From an uncultured virus (IMG/VR IMGVR_UViG_3300028591_000091) (Duplodnaviria > Heunggongvirae > Uroviricota > Caudoviricetes): a stretch of 49,500 nt of DNA. Shown here piece by piece: positions 8,510-45,385 of this stretch. The first letter of the stretch is position 1; each line of letters opens with the position of its first letter. The translations under genes were made by a program, and so were the position numbers. The stretch lies in IMG/VR virus record IMGVR_UViG_3300028591_000091; one strand, 5' to 3'. Under the pieces are notes generated by a model. That model ran no database searches. It was not told the origin of the DNA and saw only the letters and a program-made list of their open reading frames with translations.

Positions 8510-9907
8510 ATGGAAAGTTTAGATTTTCTTTATTCATTGATGTCTCCTTTCTTATATAAGGAGGCACAAAATAATATTAAACATTTAGAGTATTATTTTG
8601 CAACAAATCCTAATACTGCTGGTAGTCCGTTGGTTCATGAGTTAGTAGATGCAATTAAAACCTATGACTATAATGCAATAGGTGAGCCGCTATTCAGATC
8701 TATACTTCAGAAAACTGGAAAGACTGCTGCGGAATCTAAAATGATCTTATCAGAAATAAACAAATGGAGGGGTTATCCTGAAAATCAGATGGATGCTAGC
8801 CGAAAATTTCTGATGAATGTTGTTGCAAAAGTTGAAATTGACCAAACACTACAAAGGTATAAAGATTCTCCAGCAGAAGCATATAAAGCAATTAAGGACT
8901 CAAGTCTTAATACTTCAGCAAATGACTCTTTTAAATCTTTCAAGTTTGGAGATATGAATATTCAAAAAGTTCTTGCTGATAAAAGCCAAGGCGCTGTTCA
9001 TACTAATTATCAATGGCTAAATGACGTATTTCCTCCACATAATGGAATTGAGCTGGGCCAGATTGGTCTTGTTTGTGCAGCTCCTGGTGTAGGTAAAAGT
9101 TTATTTTCAATGAACTTAGCTTTATATTTTGCATCGTGTGGGGTAAAAACTTTGTATGTAACTCTTGGTGATTTAGTTGAACGAGACTGGATCACACGTC
9201 TTGGAGCAATCTACTGTAATTGTTCTTTTGCTGAATCATATAACAACATGGAAAATATGTTTTATAATATAAAGAAAATTACAGGAGATAATTTAGAGTT
9301 GTCAATAAATCCATCAGGTAAAATAACTTCTACAGAGATAGTTGATTATGTTTTAGAAAGAGATTATAAGGTGATTTTTATTGACTATGATGCGAATCTT
9401 TGTGGAGCATCTGATGGAACTGAAGAATCTGGATCTAGTATGTATTCTAATTATGGAAAAATATATGCAGACTTTACCAGACTTTCAATGAATGGAAGAC
9501 TTGTAATCGTTTGTTGTCAACCCAAGATCTATAGTTGGGGACAGTTGATTGGTTTAGGAGATATTGGAGAATCTAAACGTAAACAAGAGACTGCTGATTT
9601 TATTGTTACTATATCAAAGACAGCTCCTGAATGTCCAAATCCTGTGTTTACGGCTTATATACCAAAAGCACGAAGAGGAAAGGTAGGAACAAAAAAATAT
9701 CTAGTTCGAATAGATGCGACTTTTTACGAAATCCCACATGGAGTATATCAACAGCTAGCCCAAATAAAGGAAGAAGTTAGATATACACCACAGGATATTG
9801 AGAGAATGGTATTGGAATATAATAAACAAATGTCAGGAATAAATCAAAAAACTCAGCAAATAGTTAATGCTAAAAAATCTGGTAATAATCCATTTGCTCA
9901 GCCGTAA
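8510..9907 (+). CDS. DnaB-like (SF4) replicative helicase
   Basis: Walker A AAPGVGKS, TLYVTLG, Walker B VIFIDY, IGESKRKQETAD and KARRG arginine-finger region. Confidence 0.85.
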   Translation: MESLDFLYSLMSPFLYKEAQNNIKHLEYYFATNPNTAGSPLVHELVDAIKTYDYNAIGEPLFRSILQKTGKTAAESKMILSEINKWRGYPENQMDASRKFLMNVVAKVEIDQTLQRYKDSPAEAYKAIKDSSLNTSANDSFKSFKFGDMNIQKVLADKSQGAVHTNYQWLNDVFPPHNGIELGQIGLVCAAPGVGKSLFSMNLALYFASCGVKTLYVTLGDLVERDWITRLGAIYCNCSFAESYNNMENMFYNIKKITGDNLELSINPSGKITSTEIVDYVLERDYKVIFIDYDANLCGASDGTEESGSSMYSNYGKIYADFTRLSMNGRLVIVCCQPKIYSWGQLIGLGDIGESKRKQETADFIVTISKTAPECPNPVFTAYIPKARRGKVGTKKYLVRIDATFYEIPHGVYQQLAQIKEEVRYTPQDIERMVLEYNKQMSGINQKTQQIVNAKKSGNNPFAQP

Positions 9908-9908
9908 T

Positions 9909-10243
9909 ATGAATGTAAGTGATAGGAATGTAAAAGTTCCTATTACTTTCTTTTATAAAAATCAGAAAATGAAAAATAGAATAAATTTTGTAATGGGAGC
10001 ACGAAAGATATTATCGGTTAATGCTCTCTATAATGCTAAAATGACCTGGGTAAACGGGAGACAAGTAGCAACTATATACAAAACAGGAGAAGCGAAACAG
10101 ACCGAAGCTTATATCAAAGAACAAGTCGAAAGATTAAATGTCCCTATAAATTATCCTTGGGTAAATAAAGATACGTTGTTCAAGATGACTATTAAGGTTG
10201 TCTTCAAGAGCGGTTTTTGCCAACGTGATTTAGATAATGTTCT
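9909..10243 (+). CDS. RusA-like Holliday junction resolvase, exon 1
   Basis: SVNALY motif and RDLDNVL; splicing to 10408 gives DLDNVLKLIQD...INDSHV, the RusA D-x-D-N-x-x-K-x-x-x-D pattern. Confidence 0.85.
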
Positions 10244-10407
10244 CTGTTTGGGAAATTAGCCTGAGTATTGCTGGAACCTTAGAGAAAAGGAATCAGCAGT
10301 TTAGGATCTTGTATCTTAAATTCAACGACTATGTACAGGCAAGTTTTATATTTATTAGAGTATAAAATGAAAGATATAGTCTAAGTATTATGATTAGAAT
10401 AATATTG
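10244..10407 (+). mobile_element. ORF-less minimal group I intron (164 nt)
   Basis: P1 with U10243-G10251 wobble; P10 TTTG/CAAG; P3 GCCTG/CAGGC; P TTGCTGGAA; Q AATCAGCAG; R TTCAACGACTA; S AAGATATAGTC; P9 hairpin; terminal G10407. Confidence 0.9.
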
Positions 10408-10948
10408 CAAGCTTATACAAGATGGAATTTTCAGAGCTCTCGAAATAAACGACTCTCATGTAGTATCAATTGTGGCGGATAAGGTTTTGTTTCCAGATAT
10501 CAGCGAAGAAAAGATTTACGTGTGTTTAGAAGAGGTGGATGGAACCGGTGTGAGATTCGACCTAATTCCAAAGCCTTCTAAAATTTGGTCCGCCGATTTT
10601 AATTTCGCTACACTTAAAGAATTACCAGAAAAAGGAGCTAGAAAAGGAAAACTTTATAAGACCGGGGATGAAGAACGCGCGGATACTTTTGTTTATATTG
10701 TTACACCGGAAAATCTCAACCTCTTAACTCCCACACGTATTATCCTTCGCTGTGTAGAGGCCGTCCTAGGAAGTAAGGGATTTGTTTATATTGCTTTTGT
10801 CGGTGATTTTGATAATAAAAATGAGGTAGAAGAATTCAAAGCCTTATTATTAGATGAACAAAAAGAATATAGTGGAATTATATTTAGAGATTTTCAAAAA
10901 CAACCTAAAGAAGAAGAATTATTATGCTGGATCTTGAAAGAACTGTGA
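10408..10948 (+). CDS. RusA-like resolvase, exon 2 with long C-terminal extension
   Basis: In frame with exon 1 after splicing (CT|C AAG); total about 291 aa. Confidence 0.85.
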
Positions 10949-11307
10949 TATGTAAAATATTTAAACATAATAATCAAAATTATGAAATTTTTGTTCCAAT
11001 ATCAGAAGAAATTGGATTAAGACCTAGAAATTCACTTTTGTATTATTATCTACACCTACATATTCGGCGACCTATAACATCTCACAAAAATAAAAATCCA
11101 AAATCAATACCTAAATATTTCTTTAATTCTACTTGTCTATTCTTTTTCGGACAAATTGACCCGATTTCGTTAATGACAGAAGAAGATGCACTATTTAATC
11201 AGAAAATAAAACTATCTTATTTACTTCCTGTTGTAAAAAATTGGTACAGTCTACACTATTTTCCTGCTATTATGATTGAAATGACGGATAATTATTGGAT
11301 AATTTAA
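10924..11307 (+). CDS. hypothetical protein
   Basis: 127-aa ORF overlapping the previous gene end; no motif recognised. Confidence 0.55.
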   Translation: MLDLERTVICKIFKHNNQNYEIFVPISEEIGLRPRNSLLYYYLHLHIRRPITSHKNKNPKSIPKYFFNSTCLFFFGQIDPISLMTEEDALFNQKIKLSYLLPVVKNWYSLHYFPAIMIEMTDNYWII

Positions 11308-11385: not shown

Positions 11386-11883
11386 ATGTTGACGAATACT
11401 GGAAATCATAAATTATATTGTTTTAGTCAGTCTGATTTTAACAATGAATGTTTTTTGAAGGGCTGGAATGATGAGTGTTGTCCAGAAAATGTTGCTTTTA
11501 TTTCAATTACTGGAACAGAAGAGTGTCAAATGTATTATCTCAAAGAAAAAGAAGAACACTGGTTTAAACAAAAGCACCCTAATGTTCTTAATATAAGCTT
11601 TGATGATATTGATACTGATGAAGTGGAGTGGGAAGGTCATATATTCTATGGACTTCAACCAGAACAAGCAAAAGAAATAGTAAGGTTTATAGAATATAAC
11701 CTGGAGAAAGATTTTTGGATTCATTGCAGAGCAGGTCAATCAAGAAGCCAAGGGATAGTCAGATTTATCTTAGATTGTTATCCAGAATATGATTGGGAAA
11801 CTAGACCAAATAATCCCTGTATCACTCCTAATATAGATGTAGTAGCTAAACTTAAACGAGTAAAGATTTATGATTATCTTTGA
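11386..11883 (+). CDS. protein-tyrosine/dual-specificity phosphatase-like protein
   Basis: CX5R active site IHCRAGQSRS; upstream FDDI acid loop; PN motif near the C-terminus. Confidence 0.85.
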   Translation: MLTNTGNHKLYCFSQSDFNNECFLKGWNDECCPENVAFISITGTEECQMYYLKEKEEHWFKQKHPNVLNISFDDIDTDEVEWEGHIFYGLQPEQAKEIVRFIEYNLEKDFWIHCRAGQSRSQGIVRFILDCYPEYDWETRPNNPCITPNIDVVAKLKRVKIYDYL

Positions 11884-43294: not shown

Positions 43295-44551
43295 ATGAGT
43301 GAAAATATTAGAGTAATTAAGAGAGATGGCAGAAAAACTAATTTCTCTGCAGAAAAAATGAAGTCTAGTATCTATCATGCAATGGAGAGAACCGATGTTG
43401 GTATTGATAGTAAAATAGCTTCAGGAATTGTTGATAAATTTCAAGAAAAAAATTCAGGAGAGATTTCAGTAGAGGTAATTCAAAACTTTATTGAAAATGA
43501 ATTGATGAAGTCTAAGTGCAAAGATGCTGCTAGAGAATTTATCAAAAACCGCCATGATAGAGATGTTGCTCGCGAAGCCAAAACAAAGGACATCTTTATG
43601 AGTATTGTTAATACTGTTAATAATGATGTCACCAGAGAAAACGCTAACATGAACAGCGACTCACCTGCTGGGATGATGATGAAGTTTGCATCAGAGACAA
43701 CTAAACCATTTGTAGATAATTATCTTTTATCGGATGAGGTAAGAGACGCAATAAAGTCGAATTATCTCCACGTCCATGACAAGGATTACTATCCTACAAA
43801 ATCTCTGACATGCCTTCAGCACCCTCTTGATAAAATACTTAGCGGTGGATTTAAGGCTGGTCATGGTGAAGCTAGAGGTGCTAAAAGAATTGAGACTGCT
43901 TCTATTCTTTCTGCTATTAGTATGGAAACTGTACAGAATGAACAGCATGGCGGTCAGGGAATTCCAGCATTTGATTTTTATCTAGCTCCGTATGTTCGTT
44001 TAACTTATATTGAAGAGCTTGAAAATTCTTTTGAATTGTTAGGCTTGGAGCTCACTGATGAAATTAGGAATGAAAATTTAAAAGATTATATAAAGAAAGA
44101 CATATCTAGTATTTCTGACCCAATTGAAAAAGCAAAACAATCTGCAATGAATAAAACGGTTTCACGCGTTCATCAATCAATGGAGTCGTTTGTACACAAT
44201 ATGAACTCAATCCATAGTAGAGGAGGAAACCAGGTTGTATTTAGTTCAATTAATTACGGAACAGATACTAGTGCTGAGGGTCGTTGTGTTATGAGAGAGC
44301 TTCTTTTATCCACAGATCGAGGTGTTGGAAATGGTGCTACAGCAATTTTCCCAATCCAGATTTGGAAACTTAAGAAAGGAGTGTCTTATCTTCCTGGTGA
44401 TCCTAACTATGATCTTTATGAATTAGCATGTAAAGTAAGTGCAAGAAGATTTTTCCCAAATTTCTTAAACTTAGATGCTACATTTAATGTAGATAAAGAT
44501 TGGAGAGAAGATGATCCTAAACGTTACGAACATGAAGTAGCAACCATGGGT
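43295..44551 (+). CDS. nrdD: anaerobic (class III) ribonucleoside-triphosphate reductase, exon 1
   Basis: ATP-cone VIKRDG, RENAN, HVHDKD, SLTCLQ, QNEQHGGQ, SRGGNQVVFSSIN, IFPI, RFFPNF; ends at ATMG. Confidence 0.95.
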
Positions 44552-45385
44552 AAGTGTAAACTACAGCTCATGTAAAATCTCTTGAACCGTGCTAACGGGT
44601 GTGCTCAGAAATGAGTGCTAATGGTTAGGCCCTAAAAAATAACCAGGGTGAGACCATGCTAAGCATCTTTAAGATATTCACATTAATTGAAATTTAAATT
44701 ATTATGTGGATATATAAAATAACTAATAAATTAAATGGGAAATCTTATATAGGTCAAACAAAAAGGCCAATAGAACAAAGATGGAGACGTCATGTTAATG
44801 ATGCAATGAATAATATATTAGATACCCATTTCGCTAGAGCCATAAGAAAATATGGTGAAAAATACTTTTCTGTAGAAGAGGTATGTAGTTCTGATTCACA
44901 AGATGAATTAAATCAGTTAGAACACTATTATATTCATAAATATAATTGTTTAGAAAATGAATATAATGAAACTGATTCAGTTTATAGGTGTGGTGGAAAT
45001 ACATATAATTCTAAAACAGAAGAAGAATTAAATATAATTAAGGATAAAATTCGTCAAACAAAATTAGGCGGATTAAATCCCAATTCAAAATCAATAAAAT
45101 TAATAGATAAGATAACAGGTGATGAATTAGTATTTTCATCTGTTAAAGAATGTTCTAATTATTTAGGACTTTCAACTCACCACCCAGTATCAAAAAGATT
45201 GACTGGGAATGTGAAAAAATTATTAAATGATAGATATGATTTTGAATATCTTAAGGATGAAAGTTTATCGACTATTGGTGATGAATGTAGCCAAGTAGGA
45301 GAGGAGATAAGCACCTCTTCGAAGCAGGAGACTCCTGAAAGGGAGAAGATATAGTCAGTGCCCTAGGTAACTAGGGATTAACATG
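44552..45385 (+). mobile_element. group I intron (IA-like) in nrdD carrying a GIY-YIG ORF
   Basis: P1 CATGGGT/GCTCATG with U-G at the splice site; P10 CTACA/TGTAG; stem CATCTTTAAGATATTC/GAATATCTTAAGGATG brackets the ORF; R ATCGACTA; S AAGATATAGTC; P9 CCCTAG/CTAGGG; terminal G. Splicing restores MG|CRT. Confidence 0.95.
44704..45354 (+). CDS. intron-encoded GIY-YIG homing endonuclease
   Basis: WIYKITN...SYIGQT...RWRRH...LEHYYI...YN; NUMOD1-like C-terminal FSSVKECSNYLG; the ORF end overlaps the ribozyme core. Confidence 0.92.
   Translation: MWIYKITNKLNGKSYIGQTKRPIEQRWRRHVNDAMNNILDTHFARAIRKYGEKYFSVEEVCSSDSQDELNQLEHYYIHKYNCLENEYNETDSVYRCGGNTYNSKTEEELNIIKDKIRQTKLGGLNPNSKSIKLIDKITGDELVFSSVKECSNYLGLSTHHPVSKRLTGNVKKLLNDRYDFEYLKDESLSTIGDECSQVGEEISTSSKQETPEREKI

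Follow-up and report, generated by a model that had tools for sequence, protein, structure and literature searches.

A compact, probable group I intron inside the catalytic helix of a RusA-like resolvase gene in an uncultured large ruminant-gut phage

A 164-nt insert interrupts the gene for a RusA-like protein in a large uncultured phage from the ruminant gut. Very probably the insert is a compact group I intron that carries no homing endonuclease gene, and it lies within the catalytic helix encoded by a fusion gene for a RusA-like Holliday-junction resolvase. It occupies positions 10244-10407 on the plus strand of the window, by which we mean the whole stretch of 49,500 nucleotides that was analysed (IMG/VR record IMGVR_UViG_3300028591_000091). 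The upstream open reading frame starts with ATG at 9969 (+), reads ...FKSGFCQRDLDNV and then meets a TAG codon at 10257-10259. Downstream, an open frame extends from 10408 to a stop codon at 10946-10948 and begins with (L)KLIQDGIFRALEINDSHVV... The 164 nt that separate the two frames are not divisible by three, and excision of 10244-10407 joins them as DLDNV/LKLIQDG, giving a predicted spliced reading frame of 271 codons (a product of about 31 kDa) in which the insertion point falls between the second and third bases of codon 92 (CU/C, Leu). On the DNA level the boundary is ambiguous by one base, with a C both at 10244 and at 10408, and the boundaries were set to 10244-10407 because the group I rule asks for an exon that ends in U and an intron that ends in G.

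Intron-less homologues were used to place the junction. Exon 2 as the query gave 61 proteins among 213 candidates, of which 14 were taken, and ten of these were full-length (249-276 aa) and uninterrupted. When aligned with the halves of the window gene and of a second interrupted locus (L001), all ten crossed the site gap-free, with the consensus DLDN[V/T/C] followed by [L/I/F]KL[I/V/L]QDG. In addition, a 126-aa fragment (P0061) reads DLDNVLKLIQDG exactly across the junction. The original prediction had noted that removal yields DLDNVLKLIQD, with the RusA catalytic spacing, and had proposed an alignment to intron-less homologues as a check; the ten homologues and P0061 matched the same junction with no gap.

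The identity of the host gene was addressed with sequence profiles and a structure model. Three of the four homologues tested scored above the Pfam cut-off for RusA (PF05866, 22.8 bits), namely P0002 with 23.1, P0051 with 23.4 and P0061 with 28.0 bits, and P0057 fell under it with 18.4 bits. The two separate halves of the window gene had no Pfam or PHROG family match. An AlphaFold model of P0002, made with alignment A2, had a mean pLDDT of 83.5, and the best six Foldseek matches of this model in the PDB were E. coli RusA (2h8c, 2h8e, 1q8r), with target-normalised TM-scores of 0.66-0.79 and E-values from 4e-5 to 4e-4. A sequence profile search of the PDB with alignment A2 gave no match. The host gene had been called RusA-like from the start, and the Pfam and Foldseek matches agree with this. 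The RusA fold comprises approximately the first 135 residues, and a further alpha/beta domain, about as large, comes after it. This C-terminal domain of about 135 aa (window 10408-10945 (+)) had no Pfam or PHROG family match, and the distant relatives P0058-P0060 carry Pfam PF15891, which is nucleoside 2-deoxyribosyltransferase-like.

The intron lies inside D87-L-D89-N-x-x-K93, the D-x-D-N-x-x-K helix, and R86, D87, L88, D89, N90, K93, D97 and D107 were invariant in all ten full-length homologues. The catalytic residues of E. coli RusA are D70, D72, K76 and D91, and we take the spacing of D87, D89 and K93 in the sequence to be the same as that of D70, D72 and K76. GenBank phages contained neither a DNA match to the region 9900-10950 nor a protein that matched P0002, no cultured relative was found, and the helicase adjoining the resolvase matched cultured phages at less than 32% identity. 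Two genes 3' of the resolvase, a 165-aa open reading frame (11386-11883 (+)) showed a weak match to dual-specificity phosphatases (PF00782, 17 bits, below the cut-off).

Judged from its sequence, the stretch 10244-10407 has the complete core of a group I intron (Table 1). The P4-P6 and P3-P8 stacks and the P3/P7 pseudoknot are present, and the sequences of J6/7-P7 and J8/7-P7' are conserved. We also found a guide-formed P1 with a U-G wobble, an omega-G, a P10 and an exact restoration of the host gene. There were no non-standard pairs among the 36 modelled nested pairs, a count from which P7 is excluded as a pseudoknot, and P1, P10, P3 to P9 and the omega-G were each located where they had been predicted. 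The predicted absences were also seen in the sequence: P2 has no room because just 4 nt separate P1 and P3, P7.1/P7.2 have no room because just 4 nt (UGUA 10332-10335) separate P7 and P3', and there is no room for a P5 extension. The intron is thus short because P2 is missing and P5, P6 and P9 are minimal, not because core elements are absent or reduced. Its G+C content is 29%, and the pairs of P8 and P9 are all A-U, a setting in which such pairings form easily. None of the loops L5, L6, L8 and L9 is a GNRA tetraloop, so tertiary clamps of the Azoarcus type are absent and unaided folding is not assured.

Table 1. Positions of the two exons and of the intron elements in the window, with the evidence for each. 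R1 is a covariance model derived from five close copies of the intron.
Feature	Position	Strand	Evidence
Exon 1, 91 codons + 2 nt, ends ...RDLDNV + CU of Leu92	9969..10243	+	ORF; 88% identity to N-terminus of intron-less P0002
Group I intron, 164 nt, without endonuclease ORF	10244..10407	+	RF00028 31.7 bits, E 2.1e-6; own model R1 189 bits by construction; junction from intron-less homologues
P1 5' strand UUCU, 4 bp with GGAA 10251-10254	10240..10243	+	U10243 is the last exon base, wobble with G10251; pairing shifts with exon in relatives
Internal guide: GUUUG 10246-10250 (P10 partner of exon CAAGC 10408-10412), then GGAA (P1 3' strand)	10246..10254	+	Sequence; guides GAGG and GGUGUU of relatives fit their own exons
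P3 5' strand GCCUG, pairs with 10336-10340	10259..10263	+	All 5 pairs changed on both sides across family
P4 10269-10274/10293-10298, enclosing P5 (4 bp) 10277-10280/10287-10290, loop AGAGAA	10269..10298	+	RF00028 alignment; pair check; family covariation
P6 hairpin, 8 bp, 10300-10307/10313-10320, loop CUUGU	10300..10320	+	All 8 pairs changed on both sides across family
J6/7 UUCAAC + P7 5' strand GACUA 10327-10331	10321..10331	+	Block UCAACGACUA conserved in window, L001 and family
P3 3' strand CAGGC	10336..10340	+	Sequence; pair check
P8 hairpin, 7 bp (A-U/U-A), 10344-10350/10361-10367, 10-nt loop	10344..10367	+	Most variable part among close copies; absent in L001
J8/7 UGAAAGAUA + P7 3' strand UAGUC 10377-10381	10368..10381	+	AAGAUAUAGUC exact match; P7 paired in 100% of cells across family
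P9 hairpin, 6 bp, 10386-10391/10399-10404	10386..10404	+	Shortened in L150; 9 nt missing in run X4 contig
Omega-G, last intron base	10407	+	G here in 7/7 intron-bearing loci
Exon 2, C of Leu92, KLIQDG..., remaining RusA fold + C-terminal alpha/beta domain of ~135 aa, stop 10946-10948	10408..10948	+	80% identity to P0002

Searched against a 451-nt stretch, the Rfam group I model RF00028 aligned its positions 1-253 to 10220-10402. The score given in Table 1 is under the gathering threshold of 50 bits, and an Rfam scan of the whole window gave no match at the gathering threshold or at E<=1. The shortfall arises because P2 is missing and the P8 and P9 loops are short, and the core is not responsible for it. 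The folding energy of the strand was lower than that of all 200 shuffled sequences (z -3.53), and the minimum-energy fold differs from the group I fold in the 5' part.

We infer the following splicing pathway from these elements. The pre-mRNA would fold into the standard P3-P9 core, and the guide GGAA would pair with UUCU of the exon to form P1. An external guanosine at P7 would attack after U10243, after which the guide GUUUG would align exon 2 via P10. The omega-G10407 would then occupy the guanosine site and the exons would be ligated, giving the 271-codon frame. The ligated-exon joint is predicted to read ...AAUGUUCU/CAAGCUU...

Besides the window, the same site was inspected in other alleles. 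Protein-alignment scans of IMG/VR, JGI metagenomes and GTDB genomes gave 2, 17 and 1 loci, and 21 sources were inspected at the site. An insert in the same phase was present in seven loci on distinct contigs, with lengths of 164 nt in the window, 162 in L150, 167 in L151 and L152, 175 in L158, 176 in L149 and 144 in L001 (L145 is the same contig as L001, and L162 ends short of the site). Twelve loci (L146-L148, L153-L157, L159-L161 and L163) were uninterrupted, and L164 was uninterrupted by match length and had no R1 match. All seven interrupted loci have U as the last exon base and G as the last base of the insert, and they keep the U-G wobble at the splice site. P1 was retained in three exon contexts, which are UUCU/GGAA in the window type, CCUU/GAGG in L149 and L158, and AACACU/GGUGUU in L001. 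P10, assigned by eye, has 5 bp in the window, 6 bp in L149 and L158 and just 2 bp in L001. P9 was shorter by 2 nt in L150 and by 9 nt in a DNA contig of sequencing run X4, and a single P3 mismatch occurs in each of two close copies (U-U in L151, A-C in L158).

A stop codon lies 14 nt past the presumed take-off site and the frame resumes downstream, as would be needed for a ribosome that crosses the 164 nt by frameshifting or by translational bypassing in the style of T4 gene 60, with no RNA splicing. The gap in T4 gene 60 is 50 nt, compared with 164 nt here. The insert moreover matches the group I model from end to end, and in the relatives the guide tracks the exon, which bypassing does not predict; we regard this explanation as extremely improbable.

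Four (X1-X4) of the 24 sequencing runs that were found were examined. The intron was found in DNA from two independent studies (runs X1 and X4), and the contigs from the metatranscriptome runs X2 and X3 lay solely outside 9942-10796 and showed no joints. Among the intron-bearing alleles dN/dS was 0.11-0.16 at dS 0.6-1.2, and intron-less pairs had values of 0.08-0.12. The exons of the intron-bearing alleles are under purifying selection, and this selection suggests that the window intron is spliced in vivo.

The gene halves alone give no RusA match, and public gene calls hold many exon-2-only proteins of 141-172 aa; both would suit a decayed intron relic or another kind of insertion, with the resolvase being a pseudogene or being expressed as two pieces. 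This is very unlikely, as both exons are open and the purifying selection holds in all intron-bearing alleles, at the dN/dS given above and at dS up to 1.2, and the intron core is intact and conserved above the exons. In the case of two-piece expression the catalytic D-x-D and K would fall on different polypeptides, and the first start codon available in exon 2 is GTG 10472, from which translation would lose KLIQDG...NDSHV. With a group I intron as the preferred reading, the RusA-like resolvase of this phage group should be annotated as one gene and not two. Gene callers that are blind to the intron give shortened proteins, and exon-2 pieces make up most of the 61 database relatives.

The identity between alleles was 92-96% in the intron versus 78-91% in the exons beside it, and the exon identity did not rise toward the intron. 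In exon 1 the window groups with L151 (91% nucleotide identity) and in exon 2 L149 groups with L151 (89%), and these differing groupings indicate that the resolvase alleles are recombinant mosaics. The intron-bearing L149 is nearer to the intron-less L147 (94% amino-acid identity) than to other intron-bearing alleles. Taken together, the pattern is consistent with a constrained RNA that may have been gained, lost or exchanged among alleles and that does not itself encode an endonuclease.

At 144 nt, the intron of L001 (3271-3414 of an IMG/VR contig), at the same RusA site, is the smallest copy that was verified. It has P1 (6 bp), P3, P4, P5, P6, P7 and P9, and lacks P2 and P8, its P3' and P7 3' strands being just 13 nt apart. 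Another 6-bp hairpin is possible in L001 and could compete with P7. L001 matched R1 with 31.3 bits (E 2.9e-4), and against Rfam only two pieces of it were matched, both weakly (one with 17.4 bits at E 0.038, the other with 12.8 bits at E 0.86). The assignment of the L001 insert to group I, made from sequence, rests on the R1 match, the shared site and the splice-site rules.

Relatives of the intron were found to be numerous. The pattern CAACGACTA-N8-38-AAGATATAGTC had more than 143 matches in IMG/VR, many of them in contigs of 200-400 kb and some in giant-virus bins. R1 gave 80 matches at E<=0.01 in 100 sources and 31 in 64 further ones (111 in 164), and no match in the intron-less loci. Among its matches are many IMG/VR contigs of 200-400 kb that have the blocks UGCUGG...UCAGCA, UCAACGACUA and AAGAUAUAGUCU in common. 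In alignment A5, which contains 58 distinct sequences and is fitted to R1 so that its pair counts are inflated, 95.5% of the cells were paired versus 34-45% with the partners slid by 1-3 columns, 36 of the 41 pairs were changed on both sides, and none of 500 shuffles reached the observed score; the replacements in P3 and P6 are nevertheless evident by eye. Changes on both sides occurred in P3, P4, P5, P6, P8 and P9 across the 58 relatives, and P7 was invariant save for four sequences with a change from C-G to A-U.

The size of the window intron was compared with that of complete relatives, defined as those holding both P4 and the P7 3' strand, with spans taken from R1. The span from P3 to the 3' end is 152 nt in the window, and it was shorter in 42 of the 46 distinct relatives, equal in two and longer in two. 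The P8 of the window is the largest of this set, in which 9 of 47 sequences have at most two letters in the P8 columns. Nine relatives were delimited by hand, requiring an exon that ends in U, an intron that ends in G and a P1; they measure 172-181 nt, have a P2 hairpin and have a tiny P8 or none. An open frame of more than 40 codons ran across the joint in eight of the nine, L170 being the exception. The original prediction had described the intron as exceptionally small and near-minimal. This description was not supported, given the 42 shorter relatives, the 144-nt homologue at the same site and a published mean of about 206 nt for introns of gut jumbo phages (PMC12880540). By its sequence the window intron is unremarkable within a large family of compact introns that lack an endonuclease gene and occur in large gut phages.

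A group of 62 stretches from IMG/VR (L165-L226), 34 of them distinct, has the P7 5' strand and AAGAUAUAGUC only 8-17 nt apart, which leaves no room for a P8 hairpin. On this sequence pattern L165-L226 form a recurrent class of P8-less group I introns, mostly in phage contigs of 200-400 kb. Six hand-delimited examples measure 174-181 nt, and an open frame was restored in five of them. A literature search for P8-less group I introns returned no relevant paper, and one for the shortest known group I introns was likewise unproductive. These P8-less relatives, rather than the single 164-nt copy, are the more interesting lead. In several jumbo-phage contigs of IMG/VR (L059, L077, L054, L016 and others) 2-4 compact introns were seen within about 600-1500 nt, with exons of about 60-90 nt between them.

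Many organellar group I introns splice with a protein cofactor, and the window intron could likewise be a real group I intron that is unable to fold alone and depends for its splicing on a phage or host protein of the maturase or chaperone type. This is a sub-case of the intron reading and not an alternative to it, and we hold it to be plausible at somewhat less than even weight. The intron has no P2, no pair of GNRA loop and receptor, a P1 of just 4 bp and a P8 and P9 of A-U pairs only, and the loss of P8 or P9 altogether in relatives suggests that the RNA scaffold is not self-sufficient. On the other hand, no candidate cofactor was seen, the neighbouring open reading frames being without an informative family match, and the intron is conserved above the exons, as expected if the RNA itself is functional. 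Small size alone also demands no protein, since the Azoarcus pre-tRNA-Ile intron of 205 nt is reported to self-splice efficiently (PMC13168695).

Variants of the window intron range from 155 to 176 nt and have the full core without P2. It is conceivable, if rather doubtful, that the window intron and its relatives mark the lower size limit of natural group I ribozymes that are still able to splice. If they are self-splicing, the minimal natural group I architecture would be 20-30% smaller than that of Azoarcus, and P8, which is usually counted as part of the core, would be dispensable in nature. For RNA biology the family offers natural and sequence-diverse candidate group I introns, some 145-180 nt long, in which the missing peripheral or even core-adjacent helix differs from one intron to the next. 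Together they could serve as a natural deletion series for what a minimal group I ribozyme needs, with no P2 in the window, no P8 in others and a reduced P9 in some. A single copy of 164 nt contributes little beyond the published survey of jumbo phages (PMC12880540).

A second group I intron in the window, of the classical type, splits the gene for anaerobic ribonucleotide reductase (nrdD) at 44576-45382 (+), where the exact splice sites are approximate. The open reading frame 43295-44575 corresponds to residues 1-268 of Pfam NRDD and the one from 45383 to residues 264-562, and between them the open reading frame 44704-45354 encodes a GIY-YIG endonuclease. The 3' core of this intron (45257-45377) matched RF00028 with 25.3 bits (E 2e-4). 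With its GIY-YIG gene it is of the classical kind found in T4 td, nrdB and nrdD (sunY).

Among known systems, the introns of gut jumbo ('Jug') phages are comparable in several respects. In these phages 2513 group I introns were reported in 136 of 139 genomes, and splicing was backed by metatranscriptome reads for 37 of 76 (PMC12880540). Dense introns have also been described in crAss-like phages (PMC7886860). The resolvase intron resembles the Jug-phage introns as reported there in being short, in belonging with introns that mostly lack an endonuclease gene and in splitting an essential gene of a gut phage, and nrdD is split in the window as it is in Jug phages (PMC12880540). Unlike the Jug-phage set as published, the window copy has 164 nt, lacks P2 and is located in a RusA-like gene, and the source of the window is a 173.5-kb contig from a ruminant sample instead of a curated Jug genome. 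The words 'RusA', 'resolvase' and 'Holliday' are absent from the main text of PMC12880540, and 'RusA' is absent from a part of its tables that does not include the intron table S8. Among titles and abstracts, no published intron in rusA was found. Compact introns of gut phages are thus already known, and the window copy appears to be a rather short addition to them, in a gene for which no published intron was found.

The Azoarcus intron is the usual benchmark for minimal self-splicing group I introns; it belongs to subgroup IC3 and has a P2, GNRA tetraloop-receptor contacts of L2 and L9 and a host site in a tRNA anticodon loop. The window intron shares with it a small size, the lack of an endonuclease gene, a complete P3-P9 core and few peripheral elements. 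As had been predicted, it is the smaller of the two, with 41 nt less than the 205 nt of the Azoarcus intron (PMC13168695). It further differs in having no P2 and no GNRA tetraloop-receptor pairs, in being A+U-rich and in interrupting a protein-coding phage gene instead of a tRNA anticodon loop. Membership in IC3 was rejected on the missing P2, the missing GNRA loop and the protein-coding host gene.

The phage introns of T4 td, nrdB and nrdD (sunY) and of Twort form part of subgroup IA2 and have P7.1/P7.2 between P7 and P3'. The resolvase intron is similar to the td and Twort type in its phage host, in its position in a conserved catalytic motif of a DNA-metabolism gene and in having the same J6/7-P7 and J8/7-P7' blocks. 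In contrast to these introns it has neither P7.1/P7.2 nor an open reading frame, and its length is approximately one fifth to two thirds of theirs. Membership in IA2 was rejected, as the only sequence between P7 and P3' is UGUA.

Still smaller are the rRNA introns of Phialophora and lichen fungi, which at 56-81 nt are reported to keep only P1, P7 and P10 (PMC3160393). Like the window intron they are natural and far below 200 nt, and a group I pathway has been claimed for them; the window intron differs from these fungal introns, as described, in retaining P3, P4, P5, P6, P7, P8 and P9 (PMC3160393). GIR1 is of a similar size and its core is likewise derived from group I. However, GIR1 is situated in a larger twin-ribozyme intron and carries out branching, not exon ligation, whereas in the window the P1 wobble, the P10 and the omega-G lie around a coding joint at which the frame is restored exactly.
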